Assembly: GCA_965242695.1 (NCBI GenBank)
Contig: CBDESU010000001.1
Location: forward strand, 1,504,001-1,568,000
Length of the DNA: 64,000 nt
Source of the DNA: Cenarchaeum sp.
GTDB taxonomy: Archaea > Thermoproteota > Nitrososphaeria > Nitrososphaerales > Nitrosopumilaceae
Direction: 5' to 3'
Below, piece after piece: positions 18,608 to 61,300 of this stretch (positions are counted from its first letter, which is position 1; each line of letters opens with the position of its first letter). Position numbers and translations under genes: made by a program. The notes under the pieces are model-generated. The model did not search any database, was not told the DNA's origin, and saw nothing but the letters and a program-made list of their open reading frames with translations.

Positions 18608-19348
18608 GTGGCCGAGGCGGGCGGGTCCGGAGGAGGCGCCGTCGTCCGCGTCGACTCGCTCGACTCGGGCTACATGGGCAACCACATCCTGTTCGGCGTC
18701 GACTTTGAGGCGCTCGAGGGCCTCATAACCGTCATCGTGGGGCCCAACGGGAGCGGCAAGAGCACGCTCCTCAAGAGCATGTTCGGGCTGTGCACGATAC
18801 ACTCTGGGACGATCAGGGTGCGCGGGGTCGACATTACGGGGATGGCCCCCCACGAGGTGGCCCGCCAGAGGATCGCGTACCTCCCGCAGGTCAACAACGT
18901 CTTTGCCAACCTGACGGTCCTCGAGAACCTCGCGATGGCCGGATACACGCTCGGCCGCCAGGATGCGGGGGAGCGCATACCGCCGCTGCTCGAGACGTTT
19001 CCCGTCCTCGGCCGCCTCCGGTCGTCAAAGGCCGGCGTGCTCAGCGGCGGCGAGCGGCAGATGCTCGGAATGGCGATGGCGCTGGTCCGCCGCCCGACCG
19101 TCATGCTGTTCGACGAGCCTACTGCGAGCCTCTCGCCGCGCCTTGCCGGCGAGGTGCTCGCCAAGATACGCGAGATGAAGGAGGAGTTTGGGATAACGGT
19201 GGTCCTGGTCGAGCAGAACGTGGAGCGGGCGCTCGGCATCGGCGACCGCGTATACCTGCTGGCCAACGGCAAGAACGTGTTCGACGGCAGTCCCGACGAC
19301 CTGCGAAGGCAGCCCGACCTCGGCAGGCTGTACCTGGGGATCGGATAG
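18608..19348 (+). CDS. livF: Branched-chain amino acid ABC transporter ATPase (LivF-like)
   Basis: GPNGSGKST, LSGGERQML, FDEPTA.L and VEQN motifs, ending LYLG. Confidence 0.88.
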   Translation: MAEAGGSGGGAVVRVDSLDSGYMGNHILFGVDFEALEGLITVIVGPNGSGKSTLLKSMFGLCTIHSGTIRVRGVDITGMAPHEVARQRIAYLPQVNNVFANLTVLENLAMAGYTLGRQDAGERIPPLLETFPVLGRLRSSKAGVLSGGERQMLGMAMALVRRPTVMLFDEPTASLSPRLAGEVLAKIREMKEEFGITVVLVEQNVERALGIGDRVYLLANGKNVFDGSPDDLRRQPDLGRLYLGIG

Positions 19349-19547
19349 GCTCGCGGGGCCCGCGGCAGCGCATGCGCCGCGGCATCGCCCCGCCATCCTG
19401 GGGAGAGGCGGCGCATCGGGAAGGGTCGCCGGGGGCGCGCCCCGCGGCGCGGGGAGGGGCAGGGGGCGGCCGCGACGGGCCCCCCACCGGCGAAGCGAAA
19501 AATGGCGGAACCGCTACCCGGGTGTCCGCCTTGGGTAGTCGGCCTTG

Positions 19548-20357
19548 CTAGCCGACCTTTGCCCTGAACTTCTTGTAGTACTGTGCAGGTATCTTCTTGC
19601 TCATCTCGTCGAGCGTGCCCTTCGCCGGGAGGCGAGGCGCGCCGCCGACTGCCTTGACGAGCTTTTTGTTGACCCCGATGGTCCTTTCGTTGTCGTCGTA
19701 GGAGCGACCGAACTTGTCCCGGATGGCCTTGGTGATGACCACGACCCTCGGCGAGTATGGCGGCCTGCCAGGCTTTTTCCTGGCCTTCCACGGGTCGCCC
19801 ATCTTGTCTGCCACCGTCCTAGCCTTTGTGGCGTATGCGACAGCCGCCTTCACCTTGAACGGCGGTGCGGCTGCTGCCTTGCGCCCGGGCTTCGGGCCGG
19901 GCTTGCGCCCAGCCGTCTTGCGGCCTGGCTTCGGGCCGGGCTTGCGCCCGGGCTTGCGCCCAGCCGTCTTGCGGCCTGGCTTCGGGCCGGGCTTGCGCCC
20001 AGCCGTCTTGCGGCCTGGCTTCGGGCCGGGCTTGCGCCCAGCCGTCTTGCGGCCTGGCTTCGGGCCGGGCTTGCGCCCGGGCTTCGGGCCGGGCTTGCGC
20101 CCAGCCGTCTTGCGGCCTGGCTTCGGGCCGGGCTTGCGCCCAGCCGTCTTGCGGCCTGGCTTCGGGCCGGGCTTGCGCCCGGGCTTCGGGCCGGGCTTGC
20201 GCCCAGCCGTCTTGCGGCCTGGCTTCGGGCCGGGCTTGCGCCCCGTCTTCTTTCCTGACCCCTTGGAGCCGGAACTGGAGGCGCGCCCCTCCCTTGCCAA
20301 GACCGTGGTTTGCCTGGATGTAGATGTGAGACTGCGTCGTACTGGTGTCTTGTTCAT
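19548..20357 (-). CDS. Lys/Arg/Pro-rich repeat protein with C-terminal transposase-N-terminus-like DNA-binding domain
   Basis: Repeats of KPGPKPGR(KTAGR). C-terminus GRPPYSPR...RSY..NE...G.PRLP.KGTL....KIP..Y resembles IS4/IS5-superfamily N-terminal helical domains. TATA-like ttaaaag upstream. Confidence 0.7.
   Translation of the reverse strand: MNKTPVRRSLTSTSRQTTVLAREGRASSSGSKGSGKKTGRKPGPKPGRKTAGRKPGPKPGRKPGPKPGRKTAGRKPGPKPGRKTAGRKPGPKPGRKPGPKPGRKTAGRKPGPKPGRKTAGRKPGPKPGRKTAGRKPGRKPGPKPGRKTAGRKPGPKPGRKAAAAPPFKVKAAVAYATKARTVADKMGDPWKARKKPGRPPYSPRVVVITKAIRDKFGRSYDDNERTIGVNKKLVKAVGGAPRLPAKGTLDEMSKKIPAQYYKKFRAKVG
19877..20243 (-). repeat. Coding minisatellite (39-bp and 24-bp units encoding KPGPKPGRKTAGR / KPGPKPGR)
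   Basis: Repeated cccagccgtcttgcggcctggcttcgggccgggcttgcg units on the + strand. Confidence 0.95.
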
Positions 20358-20496
20358 GGGCCGCCGATGATCGGGATTCTTTTAACTGTGCTGTGTCTAA
20401 TGTTTTTTTGCGGCGGGTCTATTTTATTTCACCCCTTTTGCGGCCCGGCGCCCTGAACGCGATCGCAAGTCGGGGGCAGGGGCGCCGTCCGCCCCC

Positions 20497-20938
20497 GAAT
20501 CGCGCCCAAAAAGCGCCCCAGAATGCGATCGCATCGGGCAGGGGCGCGATTTGGCGCCGGATCAGCCGCCGATTGCGGGTCGAACGCGCGATTTGTGCCG
20601 CGCGGGTCGATTTTATTTCACCATTTTCGGGGCCGGGCGCGGCCGGAAATGCGATCGCCAGCCTGGCAGGAGCCTCGGATCGGGCAGAATCGCGCCCAAA
20701 AAGCGCCCCAGAATGCGATCGCATCGGGCAGGGGCGCGATTTGGCGCCGGATCAGCCGCCGATTGCGGGTCGAACGCGCGATTTGTGCCGCGCGGGTCGA
20801 TTTTATTTCACCATTTTCGGGGCCGGGCGCGGCCGGAAATGCGATCGCCAGCCTGGCAGGAGCCTCGGATCGGGCAGAATCGCGCCCAAAAAGCGCCCCA
20901 GAATGCGATCGCATCGGGCAGGGGCGCGATTTGGCGCC
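20497..20938. repeat. 190-bp non-coding tandem repeat, ~2.3 exact copies (plus degenerate part-copy at ~20411-20467)
   Basis: Unit starts gaatcgcgcccaaaaagcg at 20497, 20687 and 20877. Period of 190 is not a multiple of 3. Confidence 0.95.
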
Positions 20939-21010
20939 AAGTCCGCGCGGCTGCAATCGATCGCATGATTTGGCGCCGCTACGGGAAATTCACCAGCGGG
21001 TTGCTTTTTT

Positions 21011-21117
21011 GCGCGGATGCGATCGCCCTGCTTTCCGGCATGCGATCGCCTAACGTCCCGCCGAACCGGCCCATTTTCGCGCGGATGCGATCGCCCTGCT
21101 TTCCGGCATGCGATCGC
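21011..21117. repeat. 39-bp direct repeat x2, each copy carrying two GCGATCGC palindromes
   Basis: gcgcggatgcgatcgccctgctttccggcatgcgatcgc at 21011-21049 and 21079-21117. Confidence 0.95.
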
Positions 21118-21185: not shown

Positions 21186-23369
21186 CTACATCCGGGGCGG
21201 CGCATCTATGCCGATCAGTCCGAGCGCCTTTTTCAGGGCAGACGTGAACGAGGCCACCAGGCACAGGCGGGAGTTGGTCAGCGCGGCGTCCGATGCGTCT
21301 ATGACCCTGACGTGCTCGTAGAAGGCGTTGAACGCAACTGCCAGGTCTCGGCAGTACCTTGCAATCACCTTTGGCGACAGGTTTGCCGACGCCTCGGCGA
21401 CGCGGACGTCGAGCATGCCGATTGTCCTGACGAGCGCCATCTCGCGCTCGCCCGCAAGGCGGCCAAAGTCGGCCGCGTCCAGATCGGGCGCCCTGCCGGC
21501 CTTTTCAAGGACTCGGGCGGCGCGCGCGTGCGCGTACTGGATGTACGATGCCGTGTCGCCCTCGAGGCTTAGCGACTTTGCGGCGTCGAACGCGATCACC
21601 TTGTCGAGATCCTGCCTGACCATCTCGTAGCGCACGGTCGCCACCGCCACGGCATCGGCTATGCGCCCGACCTCGCCGGCGTCTAGGGCGCTGTTGCGCT
21701 TGAGCGTCTCGGCGCTGGCCCTCTCGCGCAGCATCGAGAGGATCGACTCGGCGCTCACGTACAGCCCCCGCCGGCCCGACATCTGCGCCGCCTTGCCGCC
21801 GGTGTCCAGCCCGAGCGACGCCGCGGTCGAGGCGCTGAGCGTGACCGACTCGTACGACAGGTGCATGTGGCCGCCGCCCTCCCCGGGATCCCGCCCGCCG
21901 CCCGCGCCTTCCGCGGGACACATTCCGCCGACTACCCCCGCGACGATCTGCTGGAGGCGCGACTGGCGCGAGTCTATGACCGCGATGGACGTGGATCCCG
22001 AAAACGGCGAGGTTCCGGTGCCGCCGCCGCCGCTGCCGTTGTCGGCGCTGCCGCCCTGCCCATCCTTGCGCAGGACGGTGCGCACGAGCCGCCTGCCCGG
22101 CTGCCTTGCGCCGTCGGACGTGGCGTACTCTTCGTACGCGAAAGGGTCGCCTACGAGCCCCAGCTTCCATGCCGCGTACGGAATGTCCTTTGCGACGTAC
22201 GTGGCGGTTCCGTCGCTCCTCACGATCACCTTGTCCGCCGAAAATTCGTCGCCCTTGTCGTCCTTGGCGGATGCGTCGTCCTTGTCGTCCTTGGCGGATG
22301 CATCGTCCTTGGCGGATGCATCGTCCTTGGCGGATGCATCGTCCTTGGCGGATGCATCATCCTTGGCGGATGCATCGTCCTTGTCGTCCTTGGCGGATGC
22401 GTCGTCCGCCCGAAACACCCAACATCCGGCGTTCTTCTCGGCCGTCGCCGGCTCTAGCTCGACGATCCCGCCCGCCCTCATCGCATCGAACGCGTTCGCC
22501 CACATGCCCGACCTGACGATCTGCGACTCGTAGTTGAGGCAGTCGTACGAGGCGCCGAGCGACCAGCACGTGCGCAGCTGGCACTCCAGAACCCGCGACG
22601 TCACGGCCTCGGCCGTGCGGGCCGACTCGGTCCCGCCGGACTCGATCTCCCTCAGGACCTCTGACCGCCTGGCAGACAGGCCCGGATCCGAGTCGTACCG
22701 GGCCGTCACCGCAACGTACACCTCGTCGCCGCAGTACGCATCGAACGGCATTCCCTCGGGCGGCTCCCGCGCAAGACCGAGGTTCTCGAACCCGACGACG
22801 ACGTCGGCCACCTGCGCGCCCGAGTCGTCAATGTAGTTGAGGACGCGCACGTCGTGCCCAGAGTACGACAGTATGCGCGCGACCGAGTCGCCGACGACCA
22901 CGTTCCTTACGTGCCCTATGTGCAGCGCCTTGTTCGGGTTGACGCTCGTGTGCTCGACGACGACAGGCCGGCCCCGGCCGATCTCGGCGCGGCCGTACCC
23001 CTCGCGGACGGACTCGCGTATGATGCTCCCCGCAAGGGCGCCGGCCTCCGCCTCTAGGTTGACGTACCCCGACCGGTGGGCCGAGGCGCGCATGAGCGGC
23101 GGCGATCCGTCCCCGCCGTCGCCGTCGCCCTCCGCGGCCGCGGCCGCCCGGTTGTACTCTTCTGCGATCGCCTCCGCGATCTCGGCGGGCCTCCTGCCTG
23201 CGCCCCTGGCAAGGACGAACGCCGCGTTGCACGACAGGTCGCCGAACCCGGGCCTCGCCGGAGACACCGCGTACGGGGCCGAGTCGGCCGCCGCGCCGGC
23301 AAGCCCCGCGGCCTTGACGGCCCTTTCGATCGCCGCCTCGGCGGCCTCAATCATGGCGCGGTACGCCAT
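21186..23369 (-). CDS. argS: Arginine--tRNA ligase
   Basis: VEHTSVNPNKALHIGH.RN (HIGH motif), RSDGTATY..KDI, QMSGRRG and YIQYAHARA (DALR domain). Confidence 0.96.
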   Translation of the reverse strand: MAYRAMIEAAEAAIERAVKAAGLAGAAADSAPYAVSPARPGFGDLSCNAAFVLARGAGRRPAEIAEAIAEEYNRAAAAAEGDGDGGDGSPPLMRASAHRSGYVNLEAEAGALAGSIIRESVREGYGRAEIGRGRPVVVEHTSVNPNKALHIGHVRNVVVGDSVARILSYSGHDVRVLNYIDDSGAQVADVVVGFENLGLAREPPEGMPFDAYCGDEVYVAVTARYDSDPGLSARRSEVLREIESGGTESARTAEAVTSRVLECQLRTCWSLGASYDCLNYESQIVRSGMWANAFDAMRAGGIVELEPATAEKNAGCWVFRADDASAKDDKDDASAKDDASAKDDASAKDDASAKDDASAKDDKDDASAKDDKGDEFSADKVIVRSDGTATYVAKDIPYAAWKLGLVGDPFAYEEYATSDGARQPGRRLVRTVLRKDGQGGSADNGSGGGGTGTSPFSGSTSIAVIDSRQSRLQQIVAGVVGGMCPAEGAGGGRDPGEGGGHMHLSYESVTLSASTAASLGLDTGGKAAQMSGRRGLYVSAESILSMLRERASAETLKRNSALDAGEVGRIADAVAVATVRYEMVRQDLDKVIAFDAAKSLSLEGDTASYIQYAHARAARVLEKAGRAPDLDAADFGRLAGEREMALVRTIGMLDVRVAEASANLSPKVIARYCRDLAVAFNAFYEHVRVIDASDAALTNSRLCLVASFTSALKKALGLIGIDAPPRM
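22254..22406 (-). repeat. In-frame 18-bp repeat (DDASAK x7) inside argS
   Basis: Repeated tcgtccttggcggatgca units. Confidence 0.95.
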
Positions 23370-26107: not shown

Positions 26108-26323
26108 GGCCGCGGCCGCCCCCGGCGCCGCGCGCGCCGCCGCCAATCCCCCTCCCCCGCCCGCCGCGCGCGGCCGGGCCGGCCGATGGGGTTAAATGAA
26201 GGCGGCCGTGGCCAAAGACATGGAGCACAGCGCTGGATTGGCGCCGCCGCCGCCGCGCGCGGCCGGGCCGCCGCCGCGCTGCGCACGGGCGGTGCACGGG
26301 GGGGTGCTAGCGGGTTGATCAGG

Positions 26324-27964
26324 GTGCCCGCGGCGTTCAAGACGGCCCCGCGCGTGCCCCCGAGGGACGGCCGCTACCCGTGCAAGGAGTGCGGGTCGCG
26401 CACGTGGATGGCGTACAGGAGCGGCGAGACCAAGCGCGGCACAAAGGGGGTGATGCCGGCGCCCATACGGTGGTGCATGTACTGCAAGGGCCTGCGGCAC
26501 TGGTCGGGCCGCAAGATAGAGGAGCAAAAGGCGTGGGCCAACCACTACTCGTGCCTGACGTGCTCTAGCTCGACGTACCGCCTGCGGCTGTGGGTCTCGG
26601 ACGGGCTGACGCTGACGCTGCCGTACGCGTACTGCGTGACGTGCGATGCCGTGGCGGACAGGCCGATCGAGACGCGCGGCGAGCGCAAGACGGACGGGGT
26701 AAAGAAGTGCGCCGGGTGCAACGCGAGCATATCCGACAGGTACAAGTGGTGCTCGAACTGCAAGCTGCGCCAGATATACGGGCACGGCCGCCTCGGCCCC
26801 CCGCAGCGCCGCGTGCGCGCCGACGAGGCCCACATAAAGCGCAACTGCGTCGAGTGCGGGGAAGAGTACCTGCCAAACTCCGGCACGCAGCGGTTCTGCA
26901 CCGAGTGCGCGGCCGCGCGCCTGCGCACGTCGCGCCGCAAGCCGACGCCCAAGAAGAAGCCGGCCAACGAGCTAGAGGTCGAGATCGATTTTTCGGCGGT
27001 CGTCGACGACGGGGCGGAGGCCGAGGCCGAGGCCGCCGCGGCCGCGGCCGCCCGGCCGGGACGCGGAGGCAAGGGGCGGCGGAGGGGGCGCGGAGCCGCA
27101 GCCAGCGCCATCGGCGCGCTGTCGTTGATTGCGCTGGAGGCCGGCGGCGGGGCGGCCCCGGCATCGCCGATACCGCCGCCCGTGTTTGACGCATCGCTGC
27201 CATACGTGCTGTGCAGGCCGTCGAGCCTGGAGGATGTGTTTCCGGGATCGGCCGACAGGGGCGGCTCTGGGCGCGCCGCTTCCGATCCTGCCGCCGCCGA
27301 CTCGGACGGCGGGGCGGCCGCGGAGCCGGGCGCCGATGCGCCCGCAAAGCGCCGTCCCGGGAGGCCGAGGAAGACGGAGGCGGCGGCGGCCGGTTCCGAT
27401 GCGCCCGCAAAGCGCCGCCCCGGGAGGCCGAGGAGGGCGGAGGTCGAGGCGGCGGCCGGTTCCGATGCGCCCGCAAAGCGCCGCCCCGGGAGGCCGAGGA
27501 GGGCGGAGGTCGAGGCGGCGGCGGCGGCGGCGGGCACCGATGCGCCCGCAAAGCGCCGCCCCGGGAGGCCGAGGAAGACGGAGGCGGCGGCGGGCACCGA
27601 TGCGCCCGCAAAGCGCCGCCCCGGGAGGCCGAGGAGGACGGAGGTCGAGGCGGCGGCCGGTTCCGATGCGCCCGCAAAGCGCCGCCCCGGGAGGCCGAGG
27701 AGGACGGAGGCGGCGGGCGAGGCGGCGGACAGTACCGGTGCGGCCCCGGGCCTCAGGGACGCTGATACGACAGCCGGCAAGCCGCGGCGCCGCGGCCGCG
27801 GCCGGCCTTCCGGCGCCGCGGCGCCTCCAAGGGCCTCGCCGTCCGCGGCAAGGCGGCGGCCCGCCAAGGCCACGCCCCCCGCAAGGGCGGCAGGGGGGAG
27901 CAAAAAGGGTCGCACCGCATCCGGCAGGGCTGCCGCAAAAGGGGCATCGGGCCGCCGATCCTGA
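26324..27964 (+). CDS. Multi-zinc-ribbon protein with six AT-hook-like repeats
   Basis: Eight CxxC pairs (CKEC, CMYC, CLTC, CVTC, CAGC, CSNC, CVEC, CTEC) followed by DAPAKRRPGRPR x6. Start uncertain (ORF open from 26186). Confidence 0.75.
   Translation: MPAAFKTAPRVPPRDGRYPCKECGSRTWMAYRSGETKRGTKGVMPAPIRWCMYCKGLRHWSGRKIEEQKAWANHYSCLTCSSSTYRLRLWVSDGLTLTLPYAYCVTCDAVADRPIETRGERKTDGVKKCAGCNASISDRYKWCSNCKLRQIYGHGRLGPPQRRVRADEAHIKRNCVECGEEYLPNSGTQRFCTECAAARLRTSRRKPTPKKKPANELEVEIDFSAVVDDGAEAEAEAAAAAAARPGRGGKGRRRGRGAAASAIGALSLIALEAGGGAAPASPIPPPVFDASLPYVLCRPSSLEDVFPGSADRGGSGRAASDPAAADSDGGAAAEPGADAPAKRRPGRPRKTEAAAAGSDAPAKRRPGRPRRAEVEAAAGSDAPAKRRPGRPRRAEVEAAAAAAGTDAPAKRRPGRPRKTEAAAGTDAPAKRRPGRPRRTEVEAAAGSDAPAKRRPGRPRRTEAAGEAADSTGAAPGLRDADTTAGKPRRRGRGRPSGAAAPPRASPSAARRRPAKATPPARAAGGSKKGRTASGRAAAKGASGRRS
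27333..27712 (+). repeat. ~60-bp coding repeat x6 (KRRPGRPR AT-hook-like units)
   Basis: ccgatgcgcccgcaaagcgccg.cccgggaggccgagg repeated six times with variable Ala linkers. Confidence 0.93.
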
Positions 27965-35495: not shown

Positions 35496-36440
35496 GTGCA
35501 CACCCTCAGGGTACCCCGCGACATACGGTTCGGCGCGGACGCGCTCGCCGAGACCGAGTACCCGGCCAACGCGCTCATCGTGACGACGGCGCCCCCAGAG
35601 ATGTCGTCCCGCTGGATCGACCGCATGGGCATACGCGACTACATGCTCTACGACAAGGTCACGCCCGAGCCGTCCATCGGGGACGTCGAGAGGCTCGTCT
35701 CCGAGTTCAAGCCGAGGTCGCCGTCGGCGCTGATCGGCCTCGGCGGCGGCAGCTCGCTCGACGTCGTAAAGTACTCGGCAGAGTCGTTCGGGGTGCCAAA
35801 GATACTCATCCCGACCACGTTCGGCACCGGCGCCGAGATGACCACGTACTGCGTCCTAAAGTTCGACGGCAAGAAAAAGCTCCTCCGCGAGGACCGCTTC
35901 CTGGCGGACACGGCCGTGATCGACTCTTTCTTCATGGACGGGACGCCCGAGCAGATCGTAAAGAACTCCGTATGCGACGCATGCGCGCAGGCGACCGAGG
36001 GGTACGACAGCAGGCTCGGCAACGACCTGACGCGGACGCTGTGCGGGCAGGCGTTCGACGTCCTGTACGACGCCATCATGAACGGCAAGCCCGAAAACTA
36101 CCCGTACGGGTCGATGCTGTCGGGCATGGGGTTCGGCAACTGCTCGACGACGCTCGGCCACGCCCTGTCGTACGTGTTTTCCAACGAGGGCGTGCCGCAC
36201 GGCTACTCGCTGTCGTCGTGCACGACGGTCGCCCACAGGCACAACAAGTCAAAGTTCTACGGGAGGTTCAAGGAGTGCATGGAAAAGCTCGGGTTCGACC
36301 GCCTCGACCTAAAGGCGGACGTGTCCGAGGCGGCAGACACCGTAATGACCGACCGCGGCCACCTCGACCCCAACCCCGTCCCGATCTCAAAGGAGGACGT
36401 GGTAAGGTGCCTCGAGGACATAAAGGCCGGCAGTCTCTAG
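35496..36440 (+). CDS. Iron-containing alcohol dehydrogenase, Nitrosopumilus-type (likely malonic semialdehyde reductase of the 3HP/4HB cycle)
   Basis: GLGGGSS.D, PTTFGTGAE and GHALSY...HG motifs. From memory the sequence closely resembles N. maritimus Nmar_1110. Substrate assignment is inferred. Confidence 0.85.
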   Translation: MHTLRVPRDIRFGADALAETEYPANALIVTTAPPEMSSRWIDRMGIRDYMLYDKVTPEPSIGDVERLVSEFKPRSPSALIGLGGGSSLDVVKYSAESFGVPKILIPTTFGTGAEMTTYCVLKFDGKKKLLREDRFLADTAVIDSFFMDGTPEQIVKNSVCDACAQATEGYDSRLGNDLTRTLCGQAFDVLYDAIMNGKPENYPYGSMLSGMGFGNCSTTLGHALSYVFSNEGVPHGYSLSSCTTVAHRHNKSKFYGRFKECMEKLGFDRLDLKADVSEAADTVMTDRGHLDPNPVPISKEDVVRCLEDIKAGSL

Positions 36441-36755
36441 TGGGCCGGCATGCGGCGCGGCGGCGCTCGGCGGCACGCCCACCATCCAATGCAAAACCGT
36501 TGCGCCATGAGTCTACCCGAGTACATGTCCCTCTTCCTCTCGTCCCTCCGCGCATGCCAGGCCCCCTCCGTCCCCGCACAGCGCCATCCCACGCCGCGTC
36601 GCCGCCTGCCGTCCCCCGCACAACTTTAATGTATCGACCACGAGTCCCCGCCGAGGGGGGTGTGCCAGGCATGGAGAATCGGGCAGCACACAGGCGTTCC
36701 GCAGGGCATGCGGACAGGAGGGTTGCGGTGGTGGCGGCGAGGTGCCGCGGCGGCA

Positions 36756-36863
36756 ATGCCGCGGGTGCATGCATCCCGGCCATGGTATGCACGCCTTCCG
36801 GCAAAGGGCACGCTCGACGAGATGAGGATGCCGCGGGTGCATGCATCCCGGCCATGGCATGCA
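36756..36863. repeat. 36-bp direct repeat x2 enclosing a 36-bp spacer (mini-array-like)
   Basis: atgccgcgggtgcatgcatcccggccatggYatgca at 36756-36791 and 36828-36863 (1 mismatch). Spacer 36792-36827 matches the reverse complement of 19599-19634 at 33/36. Confidence 0.9.
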
Positions 36864-36876
36864 GGGGGCGTACAGA

Positions 36877-38022
36877 ATGACCGCAATCCGAAGGCTCCCC
36901 AAGGTCAGCACGAGGAGAGAGTTCATACGCGTCCTCGAGGGCTGGATGGCCCCGTCAGGAGACGATGCGCCGGACGGCGGCGAGGATGCCGCCGCGGGCC
37001 GTCCGACGGACCTCAAGGCGTATGTGCTCGAGTCGAACGCCCCCCTCCGCAGGCGGGCCAAGACGGAACGGGCTAGATGGAGCATGTCCGATACGGGCAT
37101 CCCCGATCTAAAAATCATGAACGTCACGCTGGGCGCCGATGCCCCCGTGCAGTTTTTTGTCGATGTCAGCGACAATAGATTCATCACCATCCATACGAAC
37201 AACAGGGCCGAGGATATGGAGAAGGTCGTCGGCGCGCTAGTCGACGAGTCGTACGGCACGTTCGACAACATGTGGATGTACCATGGCATGCTCGACCACA
37301 TAGCAAAAAAAGTAGGAAGCGCCTTTGTGGGGTTTTCCATAAAGTATACCGACAGGCTGCTCGCCCGCACTGAAGCGAAGCACGATGCGTCAGTTCTTGA
37401 AGATCTGTACATAAATATCAGCGGCCGGAAGGCCACCCGCCTAAGGAACCTCGTAAAAAACGATCGAGACTTTCAAGATATAATGGCATACAAGAAGGTT
37501 CGTATCATGCGGGGCCCTCGCGGTGACGAGAAGGGCTATGTGCACGACGACATCGCAAGCACTGGATACTTTGCCGTCAAACACGGCAAATCGGTCCAAA
37601 ACCATCTGAGCATCGTCGAGGAATCCAAGGAGATATACTCTCGCGCCGTCAGAGGGGTGGAGGACTGCCGGCTAGGCATAGACAAATCCGGCGGCATGGC
37701 GATCGTCAAGGGACAGGCGCTCAATTTCACACTGTCAAAGCAGATAACCAACGTCGAGCAGTTTATCGACGTGGTCTTTAACACCGCCAAGCCGTTTCGG
37801 ATGAGCGGAATAAAATCCGTGATTCAGCCGGGGTATTACCGGGTCCTGGCCGTGGATCTGCACACGGGGGATCCCATGACGTTCGAAATTGCAAGGGGCA
37901 TCATGCGCGTCTACCTCTCGCAGCACAGCTGCGGCAACACGATCATGCGCCTGCTGACAAACCTGCAGTCGTCGTACGGAACAGATACGCGTTGCATGGA
38001 GGTGGATCAGATTGTTGGCTAG
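36877..38022 (+). CDS. Unknown ~380-aa protein, first gene of a lower-GC two-gene unit
   Basis: Clean ORF with atypical codon usage and globular composition (AVDLHTG..FEI...RVYL...CGN...RLLTNLQ). Overlaps the next gene. Confidence 0.8.
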   Translation: MTAIRRLPKVSTRREFIRVLEGWMAPSGDDAPDGGEDAAAGRPTDLKAYVLESNAPLRRRAKTERARWSMSDTGIPDLKIMNVTLGADAPVQFFVDVSDNRFITIHTNNRAEDMEKVVGALVDESYGTFDNMWMYHGMLDHIAKKVGSAFVGFSIKYTDRLLARTEAKHDASVLEDLYINISGRKATRLRNLVKNDRDFQDIMAYKKVRIMRGPRGDEKGYVHDDIASTGYFAVKHGKSVQNHLSIVEESKEIYSRAVRGVEDCRLGIDKSGGMAIVKGQALNFTLSKQITNVEQFIDVVFNTAKPFRMSGIKSVIQPGYYRVLAVDLHTGDPMTFEIARGIMRVYLSQHSCGNTIMRLLTNLQSSYGTDTRCMEVDQIVG

Positions 38023-38875
38023 CGGGCACACCCGGCTTCTGAACATGTTCATAGGCCTGTGCAACAGTAGCCCCACGTGGCCCACATTGCTCTACGACAT
38101 GGACTATGACATCATATTGATCGAGGAGAAGATAGCAGTGGGCAGGCATGCTACGGCTACCCCCGACCTTGTCGCATACTCTGGAAAGCATTCACATGCG
38201 ATCGTGGTCGAGTCCAAAAGTGGCCGCTCCATACAGTCCCACCAAGACGGATCCTATTCCATGCTTTCCACATCAGACCTTAAGCGGGGGGTCGTGGCCA
38301 CGGACTCGAAATTGAGCGGGCACGTAGCATGCTACGTCGTCAACCGCGACAACTATCCCAAGCTTGCAAGGCAGACGCGGCTTCCCTTCATAGTGTTCGG
38401 GAACGCCGTGGAGGGGCACGGCAACTTCGGAGAGAAGTCCCTCGACAAGGCCCTACACGCCGGAGCGCCGCTAAAAGGAATGCTAGAGCCGATTGCATAC
38501 TATCCGTTTTCCCACGGAGAGGATATCCGCATCATTGTTCCCCATGTGATCTCGGCGGTGATCTCCCTCATCCGGAATCCGGCAACCCGCTTAACCTTTG
38601 ACATAAATCGCCCCGATGCCGCCCACTCCGTTCTGACCATGGTGCATCCATACCACTCGGTGCTGGGACGCAAAGAAAAGACAGCGCTGACAAGAAAGAT
38701 ACGAAAGATCATCAAACAACTAATGCGTGAGAACCCAGAGCTTGCCGAGCAGGCCAAAAAAGTGCAGGGGCAAAGATCGACTCCGCAAGCGATCCATATG
38801 TTTGTGTCCGCGTGCCAGAAGGTAGGCAAGGACTACGCCGATCAGGGCAGGATCGACGGCGAGCGCTGGCAGTAG
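38012..38875 (+). CDS. PD-(D/E)xK-superfamily nuclease-like protein
   Basis: E...TPDLVAY......IVVESKSG.....Q...Y motif arrangement. Confidence 0.7.
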   Translation: MLASGHTRLLNMFIGLCNSSPTWPTLLYDMDYDIILIEEKIAVGRHATATPDLVAYSGKHSHAIVVESKSGRSIQSHQDGSYSMLSTSDLKRGVVATDSKLSGHVACYVVNRDNYPKLARQTRLPFIVFGNAVEGHGNFGEKSLDKALHAGAPLKGMLEPIAYYPFSHGEDIRIIVPHVISAVISLIRNPATRLTFDINRPDAAHSVLTMVHPYHSVLGRKEKTALTRKIRKIIKQLMRENPELAEQAKKVQGQRSTPQAIHMFVSACQKVGKDYADQGRIDGERWQ

Positions 38876-59718: not shown

Positions 59719-61300
59719 GGTAGTTATGCGTATTCGAATCGTACTGTTATAATACGTACCAATTGACGAGATTTGCGCGGAACATCCCGCGATGTTTTGC
59801 GAAATTGAAGAAACTCTGATCGAATTACGGACTTCGATCGCAGAAATGCGTCAAATCGGGGCGAAATTTCCGGGCAGAGGTCGAAATCGGGGCCGTTTTC
59901 GGCATGCCGTCCGGCGGCATGCGCCCTGCGAAACTATTTTGCATGCGGCGCAACGGCCGCGGCGCGCTATCCGAACGTCTTGTACGGCTTTCTGCCGACC
60001 CAGCCGATCTCGGGCCGCTCTCCCTTCGGGCCCTTTGCGTGCGACCTCCCGGGGTCGATGCACCCCATCAGCCTCTGGAGGTTGACGACCCCCGTGATGA
60101 ACACGACCATGTTTCCCAGGCCGACGATGGTCCCGCGGAATATCCCGCCGACCAGGGGGTAGATCTTTATCCTGCGGAACTCGTTCTCTGCGATCGACCT
60201 TGGCGCGTCGATGCTGTAGTTGTACGCGCAGTCCTCGGCGGACAGCTCCTTCTGCCCCTTGGCCTTCTTCCGGGGGATCCTGACGTCGGCGCCGGGCCAC
60301 TCCTTGTCGGCCGTCAGCATGGCCTTGTCGACGTTGACCGTCATGCGCAGCTCCTCCGGCGTGGCGGGGTCCTCCATGCTCCTTGTGATGTCGCCCAGGA
60401 AGGGGAGGGTCTCGCGGAGCGCGACTATGTTGTGCTTGCGGCCCTCCATGATCTCGCCCATGGCCAGGAGCAGGCCGGCCTGGGCGCACAGGAACACCGC
60501 CTTTGCGGTCGTCGTCTGGGCCTTGCCCGAGAACGCCGCCTCGTTGGACTCCCTGTCGCCCGGCGCCTCGATCTCAAACTCGGTGACGTCGCAGTTGATC
60601 ACGCGGCCGATCGCCTCGATGACCTCGTCGCCGGGAGTCTCGGCGATCTCGTCGGCAACGGCCACGATCGTCGGCATCGTCCGGGGGTTCGTCAGGAGCG
60701 CCAGGGTCAGGCTCAGGTACCGCGATATGGTCGTCTGGTCTATGCCGAACTTGCTCTCGAGCATCTCCTGCGGGTTGCCGCTGCGGGCCGCATGCAGGAT
60801 GAGGAAGGGCATGTGGGCCGGAAGGATCCTGCACCGGTTGCCCTGCCAGCCGGCCCTGTGCTCGTCGACGCCGCCCCGGGCCAGCGGCATGGCCAGGTTC
60901 CCCCTCAGGCCGTCCTTGACGCATGCGACCATGTAAAAGTAGGGGCGCGGATCCACGCCCGTCTCGGCGCGCAGCCGGGCCGGGTCGCGTATCACGTTGT
61001 CTAGCATGACGGTGCATGCGGCGCGATCGTACTCGTCCGGATCGGCGTGCCCCTTCATGGCATCGGCCTTGCGCGCATCCGCCTCCGCCTCGAACAGCTT
61101 CTGCTCGGGCAGGGCATACTCGTCGAGCATGGCGCGCTCGACGGTGAGCCACTTGAATGCGGGCATCTTTTCGTACTTGCATCCCATGATGCTTCGGATG
61201 ACGTACCTTTCTTCCGCCATGCCGCCTGTCGCGGCCGTCCTTGTACCCCACAGTGGTCAATAATTTTTTACCTGCGGTCAGCTCTTTACGCATGACTGCC
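59719..61300 (-). mobile_element. Complete IS5-family (ISL2/PIF-Harbinger-like) insertion sequence, 1582 bp
   Basis: 14-bp imperfect TIRs ggtagttatgcgta (59719-59732) and tacgcatgactgcc (61287-61300), 12/14 match. Flanked by 3-bp direct repeat CTG at 59716-59718 and 61301-61303. Confidence 0.88.
59967..61220 (-). CDS. DDE_Tnp_4-type transposase
   Basis: HTH (LESKFGIDQTTISRYL) plus INCDVTE..IEAP, FSGK, VDKA and YN....PRSIAEN.F.RIK motifs. Confidence 0.92.
   Translation of the reverse strand: MAEERYVIRSIMGCKYEKMPAFKWLTVERAMLDEYALPEQKLFEAEADARKADAMKGHADPDEYDRAACTVMLDNVIRDPARLRAETGVDPRPYFYMVACVKDGLRGNLAMPLARGGVDEHRAGWQGNRCRILPAHMPFLILHAARSGNPQEMLESKFGIDQTTISRYLSLTLALLTNPRTMPTIVAVADEIAETPGDEVIEAIGRVINCDVTEFEIEAPGDRESNEAAFSGKAQTTTAKAVFLCAQAGLLLAMGEIMEGRKHNIVALRETLPFLGDITRSMEDPATPEELRMTVNVDKAMLTADKEWPGADVRIPRKKAKGQKELSAEDCAYNYSIDAPRSIAENEFRRIKIYPLVGGIFRGTIVGLGNMVVFITGVVNLQRLMGCIDPGRSHAKGPKGERPEIGWVGRKPYKTFG

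Follow-up and report, generated by a model that had tools for sequence, protein, structure and literature searches.

Architecture of the gene at 19548-20357

The sequence analysed here, referred to as the window, is a 64,000-bp stretch (C1:1504001-1568000) of a 3.89-Mb archaeal assembly in two contigs, G000, with a GC content of 67-68%. An archaeal amoA gene was found in this genome, and five of the ten sequencing runs that hold half or more of its sampled words are labelled as sponge metagenomes (no RNA run was among those listed, which speaks neither for nor against expression); we infer that G000 represents a sponge-associated ammonia-oxidising archaeon. For archaeal symbionts of this type, the accessible text of one study describes raised GC content and more transposases (PMC7848895). 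Throughout, G004 designates the sister genome, G001, G002, G009 and G051 the genomes of relatives, and P-numbers metagenomic or database proteins.

The gene under study occupies positions 19548..20357 of the window on the reverse strand, starts with ATG and encodes 269 aa with a net charge of +75; the open reading frame call is accompanied by a syntenic orthologue in G004. A leader (aa 1-38; 20244..20357, reverse strand), which can be aligned by eye across the three full-length orthologues (G000, G004 and P0006), is followed by a basic tandem-repeat tail (aa 39-160; 19878..20243, reverse strand) and by a DUF772-like helical domain of ~98 aa (aa 172-269; 19551..19844, reverse strand), which carries D221 and E251 at positions where related transposases have conserved arginines. 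The tail, with 10 KPGPKP motifs in 122 aa composed solely of P, G, K, R, T and A and a net charge of +48, is a low-complexity basic segment of the kind that characterises H1-like and nucleoid-associated proteins. The C-terminal part (~109 aa) bears the motif GRPPYSPR..SY..NE..LP.KGTL..KIP..YY and ends at the stop codon, with no catalytic domain. The layout proposed by the sequence-only reading, namely ~120 aa of K/P/G/R repeats followed by a motif-bearing C-terminal domain, a stop and no DDE region, is therefore borne out by the reading frame.

The DNA encoding the tail forms a tandem array at 19878-20250 with periods of 39, 63 and 102, and the other frames across the gene are also almost free of stops. 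Since basic tandem tracts are present in at least eight open reading frames of G000, the tail may in part reflect a genome-wide tendency towards repeat amplification. One further open reading frame in the window (26186-27964) combines zinc-ribbon-like Cys pairs with repeated KRRPGRPR motifs, which we take to be AT-hook-like; its repeats are also found in G004. Upstream of the gene, an AT-rich, TATA-like block ~25-50 nt 5' of the ATG (20380..20407, reverse strand) is kept in G004, by eye, and is a putative promoter; a sigma-70 scan of this region, using a model not made for archaeal promoters, called none. Right after the stop codon, a stem followed by a T-run (19498..19530, reverse strand), similar in G004 by eye, is a putative terminator that a terminator scan did not call. 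The convergent ABC ATPase gene ends at 19348, ~200 bp past the stop codon (the gap is shorter in G004), and hence there is no DDE frame behind the gene.

The C-terminal domain is related to the N-terminal domain of IS5-type transposases

Direct searches against family models did not identify the domain. Pfam and NCBIfam scans of the protein and a Pfam scan of the domain returned no match, and neither the protein nor the domain reached the curated cut-off of Pfam DUF772 (PF05598; 23.1 bits); the deepest orthologue, P0003, scored 12.8 bits (E 0.12), also below that cut-off. A phmmer search of 1.84 billion proteins returned 25 matches, of which three were orthologues (P0001, P0003 and P0006) and three were proteins above the DUF772 cut-off (P0017, P0021 and P0022; E 1e-5 to 3e-4). 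The other 19 were discarded: 18 were Tudor/Agenet multi-repeat proteins, set aside as summed-repeat artefacts because the predicted model of the domain is all-helical, and one more was unrelated. In the ESM Atlas, the top cluster (score 0.94) is annotated as 'transposase family protein' and 19% of its members carry DUF772. In G009, the domain matches the N-terminus of eight copies of a ~326-aa transposase composed of DUF772 and DDE_Tnp_1, for which the best NCBIfam model, IS5 NF033579, gives 124 bits against a cut-off of 140.

The relationship was assessed by comparing a profile of 12 orthologue sequences with one of 24 full-length transposase N-terminal domains. The hhalign comparison gave a probability of 97.7% (E 1.4e-12) over 88 columns, against 0.3% for a reversed control; the independence of this test is limited, the 24 transposases having been fetched with profiles that contained the query. 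A transposase-only profile searched against G000 matched the 19548-20357 gene alone (E 1e-8; next match E 0.14). The AlphaFold model of the domain (pLDDT 82) gave no Foldseek match at E ≤0.001, and the best structural match reported by VIA, DnaA domain IV (Z 4.5, rmsd 3.5, 77 aligned), lies within background; the lack of a closer match says nothing for or against a helix-turn-helix fold. A PDB sequence search reached only E 0.45, a single-sequence word search found nothing among 214 candidates, and a search for related loci in metagenome and genome contigs likewise returned nothing.

Judged by this homology evidence, an IS5-type (IS4/IS5-clan) transposase was the source of the C-terminal domain, which corresponds to the N-terminal domain of that enzyme and is homologous to DUF772 yet lies outside the Pfam model. 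The DUF772-like N-terminal domain of the IS5 family is present and colinear over 88 columns with DUF772 (PF05598) of IS5/IS1182-type DDE transposases. Unlike in those enzymes, it lies in a single-copy gene with no DDE frame, no frameshift site and no detected element ends, and it differs further in its long branch, the loss of two conserved arginines, the 122-aa repeat tail and a score below the Pfam cut-off. The similarity to transposase N-terminal domains predicted by the sequence-only reading was thus recovered at the profile level, and the proposed IS4/IS5-type origin stands; the 'end-binding' part of that proposal is weakened, because the two conserved arginines are replaced and no parent element was found in G000. 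In transposases, the N-terminal DUF772-type domain presumably binds DNA. A literature search that left most subscription journals outside its reach found no paper testing DUF772 function or dealing with solo DUF772 proteins, and a small, catalytically empty, conserved protein of this kind offers a direct route to what the domain binds.

The gene is single-copy, syntenic and under purifying selection

If the gene were part of a mobile element, a DDE domain (either in the same frame or reached by a -1 frameshift), terminal inverted repeats, and multiple copies or a variable position would be expected, and none of these was found. Searches of G000 by tblastn with the G009 and G004 transposases returned no parent element, no exact inverted repeat of at least 12 nt connects the downstream 200 bp with the upstream 830 bp of the gene, and a profile of the orthologue domain, run against all six frames of G000, recovered the gene itself only (E 1e-39; next match E 0.55). 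A weak match at C2:635848 runs antisense to a different gene and is interrupted by two stops, and another at C1:1610151 lies inside an unrelated open reading frame. The genome-wide paralog search therefore leaves a single copy, contrary to the paralog family proposed from the sequence alone, and the gene falls outside the IS5 transposases, since it shows neither their catalytic domain nor their ends nor their copy number.

The gene has instead the attributes of a fixed host gene. Its orthologue in G004 is syntenic, lying between argS and the ABC ATPases, and shares 70% identity in the C-terminal part. For this one pair (G000-G004), dN/dS is 0.32 at a dS of 0.53 over 99 codons; six neighbouring genes range from 0.12 to 0.30, so that the 19548-20357 gene has the highest value of the seven compared. 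The orthologue profile matched eight of 401 genomes of the family, strongly only G000 and G004; a broader profile matched 61 of the 401, mostly multi-copy transposases. Metagenomic orthologues extend down to 44% identity, and across eight orthologues spanning that range 26 columns are invariant. The three full-length orthologues share the leader and 8-13 KPGPKP motifs, with a conserved core motif in units whose length varies (13/8 aa in G000, 20 aa in G004 and 16 aa in P0006); P0006 seems to be frameshifted near its end, in the last helices. A search for longer forms among 8000 scored candidates returned only P0006, with the same architecture and no fused longer form, which is weak evidence on that point. 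In a tree built from 48 of 88 extracted domains (the other 40 rows, being near-duplicate, short or broken, were left out), the orthologues form a clade with 100/99 support on a long stem.

Synteny, the dN/dS of the single pair and the 100/99 clade together describe a gene that is fixed, orthologous and under purifying selection, and there is little doubt that it arose from a transposase and was domesticated. The competing view, of a neutral relic, a decaying element fragment whose open frame is a chance product of the GC-rich and repeat-prone genome, could draw on the narrow distribution (strong in 2 of 401 genomes), the apparent P0006 frameshift and the nearly stop-free alternative frames over the gene. 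It is improbable, and already largely refuted, given a dN/dS of 0.32 at a dS of 0.53, the joint conservation of leader, tail motif, domain, promoter-like block and stop position, and the 26 invariant columns in orthologues as divergent as 44% identity. The domesticated gene finds partial parallels elsewhere. OrfA/InsA-type products of IS3 and IS1 are catalytically dead N-terminal transposase pieces that are made alone and bind element ends; the protein studied here is likewise a lone N-terminal piece, but no element remains around it and its gene has become a fixed part of the chromosome. CENP-B, a domesticated DNA-binding domain of a eukaryotic transposase, shows a host keeping part of a transposase without transposition; here the transposase family is another one, the host is archaeal and the catalytic domain has been deleted rather than merely inactivated. 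Few domestications of transposase parts are well supported in prokaryotes.

The 13289 gene and the neighbouring tandem array

The sequence-only reading had placed the gene in two local relationships, as the mirror image of the 13289 gene, which would have kept only a catalytic half, and as a possible binder of the adjacent 190-bp array. The first does not hold. The 13289 protein matches the resident transposase at 59967-61220 with 31% identity (E 1e-23) and the IS5-type parent of the domain at E 0.52 only, and the IS5 N-domain profile scores -0.7 bits on the 59967 protein. Because 13289 belongs with the 59967-type transposase and not with the IS5-type parent, the two genes are, on these comparisons, parallel cases rather than halves of one enzyme. 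A split transposase, in which the domain and the DDE-only 13289 protein would cooperate in trans, could appeal to the position of both genes within the same 7 kb and to the basic repeat tail that each encodes; with the families so different by all three of these measures, its probability is close to negligible.

The 190-bp array (20497..20938) lies between the gene and argS and consists of 2.3 copies that are 100% identical and rich in an 8-bp palindrome. No copy was found elsewhere in G000 by blastn, G004 has a different, 104-bp array at the same site, and the array is one of 124 large-period arrays (period ≥90) in G000, for which reasons it is not supported as a special target of the protein. 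Farther along, argS itself contains an in-frame, low-complexity acidic repeat insertion built of 18- and 27-nt units (window 22247-22383), in place of which G004 has a different short repeat.

Residue and charge shifts and the proposed function

Comparison of the domain with its transposase relatives revealed two opposing shifts. In seven orthologues the domain has a net charge of +14 to +17, whereas 24 full-length transposases range from +3 to +9. Conversely, position 221 is R in 16/24 full-length transposases and 13/13 OrfA proteins but in 0/7 orthologues, and position 251 is R or K in 17/24 and 12/13, respectively, and again in 0/7 orthologues; in all seven, both positions hold D/E or other non-basic residues. 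The loss of these arginines, together with the gain in net charge, would favour low-specificity coating of DNA over recognition of element ends. Under this mechanism the disordered +48 tail would neutralise and condense DNA in the manner of an H1 tail, and the helical domain, with more basic charge than its transposase counterparts but without the two conserved arginines, would serve as a folded anchor that no longer reads element ends. We therefore lean, at somewhat better than even odds, towards a low-specificity, nucleoid-associated, DNA-coating protein.

Proteins that pair a folded domain with a long low-complexity basic tail of K/A/P repeats include AlgP, Hc1/Hc2, HupB (in its tails) and linker histone H1. 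The likeness, which extends to variable repeat number, is one of design only: the tail here is K/P/G/R and N-terminal, the fold is transposase-derived and no homology by sequence is apparent. G000 also carries a histone-fold gene, and therefore nothing is missing that the 19548-20357 protein must replace. By origin, then, the protein combines a transposase domain that has been domesticated with a tail of histone-like character; its proposed function stands at about even odds. Such a solo gene bears on the question of mobile elements as a source of archaeal chromatin proteins.

Two other functions were weighed against DNA coating. In the first, the protein would be a sequence-specific regulator whose domain reads a changed motif and represses incoming IS5-type elements, its own promoter or dispersed 8-bp palindromes, the tail adding affinity. 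The fold-defining residues P189, G197, P244, T248 and Y260 are kept, and the absence of a parent element from G000 is what silencing would produce. The 1 kb 5' of the gene is, moreover, the densest stretch of the 8-bp palindrome in the genome (10 copies, out of 574 genome-wide), G004 has six copies upstream in its differently sized array, and the palindrome occurs in 0/7 argS/livF loci of relatives that lack the gene. Tandem duplication inflates this count, however, and the palindromes near the gene (window 20459-21117) recur in several unrelated intergenic tandem arrays (C1:1603101, C2:1078548 and C2:1184296); genome-wide, observed over expected is just 1.1-1.3, and a HIP1-like excess was accordingly discarded. 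With the two conserved arginines replaced, and with G004 carrying the gene alongside an IS5-type element whose DDE frame is open, regulation is unlikely, and the upstream palindrome cluster is best treated as a lead towards it. In the second, the ligand would be RNA, other polyanions or partner proteins, as in a condensate or in ribosome association, with the transposase domain as a passive scaffold. The acidic replacements at two presumptive DNA contacts agree with this, and a disordered tail of +48 is not expected to discriminate between polyanions. The domain has gained, not lost, basic charge and descends from an enzyme that acts on DNA, and we consider this reading less likely still than regulation. 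DNA coating remains our preferred function, and the complete account, of a domesticated IS5-type remnant with a low-specificity DNA-coating function and an off-target CRISPR spacer derived from it at 36.8 kb, is given a probability of roughly 0.55.

Solo tail-plus-domain genes and their possible source in first frames

DUF772 occurs as a separate first frame in frameshifted transposase genes, according to the accessible part of one report (PMC3711429). An element in G004 (L010 / L019; G004:C1 near 225500) shows this layout: a tail rich in K/R precedes the domain, after which come an A-run and DDE_Tnp_1 one base off. First frames of the family to which it belongs (P0063-P0073) begin with an N-terminal tail of ~70 aa rich in K/R and stop at the A-run, where the frameshift leads into the DDE frame. 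The motif that closes the first frame of the G004 element also closes several metagenomic proteins, and the stop of the 19548-20357 gene lies close to the point at which related first frames finish. A plausible route would thus begin with an ancestral IS5-type element in which a first frame of its own (OrfA) encoded the domain and a -1 frameshift gave access to the DDE frame. Once the second frame was lost, a ready-made protein of basic tail plus domain would remain, and its tail would then have been re-amplified, as many repeats are in G000. Descent of the tail from the K-tailed OrfA family itself was considered and is unproven, the sister relation being borderline (p-AU 0.05).

Other solo genes of this form were found. 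In G051, a 135-aa protein with a K/A-rich tail and a DUF772 domain (L024:1375-1782; P0017) has no DDE frame downstream and is encoded between bioB-like and bioA-like genes, inside a biotin cluster. G002 encodes a solo DUF772 protein of 145 aa (L004:1405-1866), followed by an open reading frame that by eye is DNA-methyltransferase-like, and P0075, P0076 and P0078, known from protein sequence alone, resemble solo tail-plus-domain proteins. Since a single clade for all solo lineages was rejected (p-AU 0.021), such genes probably have more than one origin, a tentative result owing to the long branches. A broader reading is that IS5-type first frames have become H1-like chromatin proteins several times, and each time independently, among symbiotic ammonia-oxidising archaea, with at least two and perhaps four origins visible. 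The layout with a programmed frameshift would in effect pre-cut the transposase, and OrfA frames would be a recurring source of nucleoid proteins in high-GC, repeat-rich symbiont genomes. We advance this only tentatively and hold it at less than even odds.

A piece of the gene at 36.8 kb is framed by direct repeats

The sequence-only reading had noted a related fragment at 36792-36827 and taken it as evidence of a gene family. The match itself is real: positions 36792-36826 agree with the 19548-20357 gene at 33/35 nt, and the blastn E value of 2.5e-8 for a genome of 3.89 Mb is not expected by chance. It does not speak for a family, being a 36-nt piece enclosed by 36-nt direct repeats. On the forward strand, the first repeat (36756..36791), a probable target-site duplication, is followed by the 36-nt insert from the gene (36792..36827), a probable off-target CRISPR spacer, and by the second repeat (36828..36863), which is identical to the first at 35 of 36 positions. 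The source, or protospacer, lies in the domain-coding region (19600..19634, reverse strand), with TTG directly 5' on the opposite strand. This fits TTN, which the consulted part of PMC6547450 gives as the PAM of I-U/I-G Cas4/1.

The insert matches the G000 and G004 alleles equally well, at 33/35 nt each, with mismatches at different positions: the two differences from the G000 allele are synonymous and both show the G004 state, and the two from the G004 allele both show the G000 state. Because the states are mixed at the differing sites, the source would have been an older or sister allele of the gene.

The 36/36/36-nt geometry of the unit (36756-36863) is that of spacer integration, the CRISPR array of this genome having a 36-nt repeat and a modal spacer of 36 nt. 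A true CRISPR repeat or a processed regulatory mini-array is unlikely at 36.8 kb, as no other copy of the repeat exists within 9 substitutions. An assembly artefact is also unlikely, since contigs from two different studies (X5 and X6) span the unit gap-free and unchanged; X7 contigs break at the repeats of the unit, and the listed X4 contig departs at 36440. No empty, single-repeat site was seen in the four runs (X4-X7). The unit very probably arose by off-target Cas4/1-Cas2 integration with a target duplication of repeat length. The probable spacer scar lies in a lower-GC block of two genes (window 36440-38875) that is absent at the corresponding place in G004.

Repeat-insert-repeat units across the genome

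The machinery for such an event is present in G000. A CRISPR array of 329 repeats and 326 spacers (317 distinct) spans G000:C1:1072616-1096404 and C1:1097063-1097920 (L079), with a 36-nt repeat and periods of 70-74 (mode 72). Beside it lie a 653-aa open reading frame of Cas4/1-fusion type and a cas2-like one, the latter recognised by eye, so that the genome combines Cas1-Cas2 with a canonical array of the same geometry as the 36.8-kb unit. Two array spacers match G000 perfectly, each with TTA 5' in the + orientation, and the leader-like end is on the right; these two may be flipped integrations.

A search for isolated repeat-insert-repeat units outside the array identified 98 at periods of 67-74, peaking at 71-72, of which 91 remained after a tandem filter. 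Other periods yielded mostly 0-4 units each, apart from 24 at period 102, which possibly represent 34-aa TPR-type repeats. Of the 98 inserts, 19 match another genomic site and stop at the repeat borders; the ten controls gave 1-6 of 98. The contrast was weaker when self-matches were counted more crudely (13/91 for inserts versus 2-9/91 for flanks). TT/AA was present near an end in 5 of the 19 self-matching inserts, not clearly above chance, and the targets resemble the CRISPR repeat only slightly (13.8/36 versus 13.2-13.3/36). For 82 of the 91 units, a crude gene call places no coding-like open reading frame across the unit. Samples of related genomes contained seven units in 245 kb of the Cas1-positive G004, a density similar to that of G000, none in 200 kb of the Cas1-negative G001, whose GC content also differs, and none in 21 kb of the Cas1-positive G002.

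It is thus probable that the ~90 units in G000 are off-target spacer integrations. A precedent, in the part of the work that could be consulted, is the formation of 'neo-CRISPR' loci in E. coli overproducing Cas1-Cas2 (Nivala, Shipman and Church 2018; 10.1101/148544, PMC7054753), in which, as here, a spacer-sized insert comes to lie between repeat-sized duplications of ordinary DNA outside the array. Unlike the case described there, the G000 units are natural, number ~90 in one assembly and occur beside a Cas4/1 fusion, and many of their inserts are self-derived, mostly without a clear TTN PAM. A short gene match between equal-length direct repeats in G000 is hence most likely a CRISPR integrase scar, at ~90 per genome, and, if so, spacer acquisition would be a natural insertional mutagen. 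Separately, an orphan two-repeat unit was observed at G000:C2:312248-312345, the 30-nt repeat of which is similar to the canonical CRISPR repeat when the latter is read in reverse complement.
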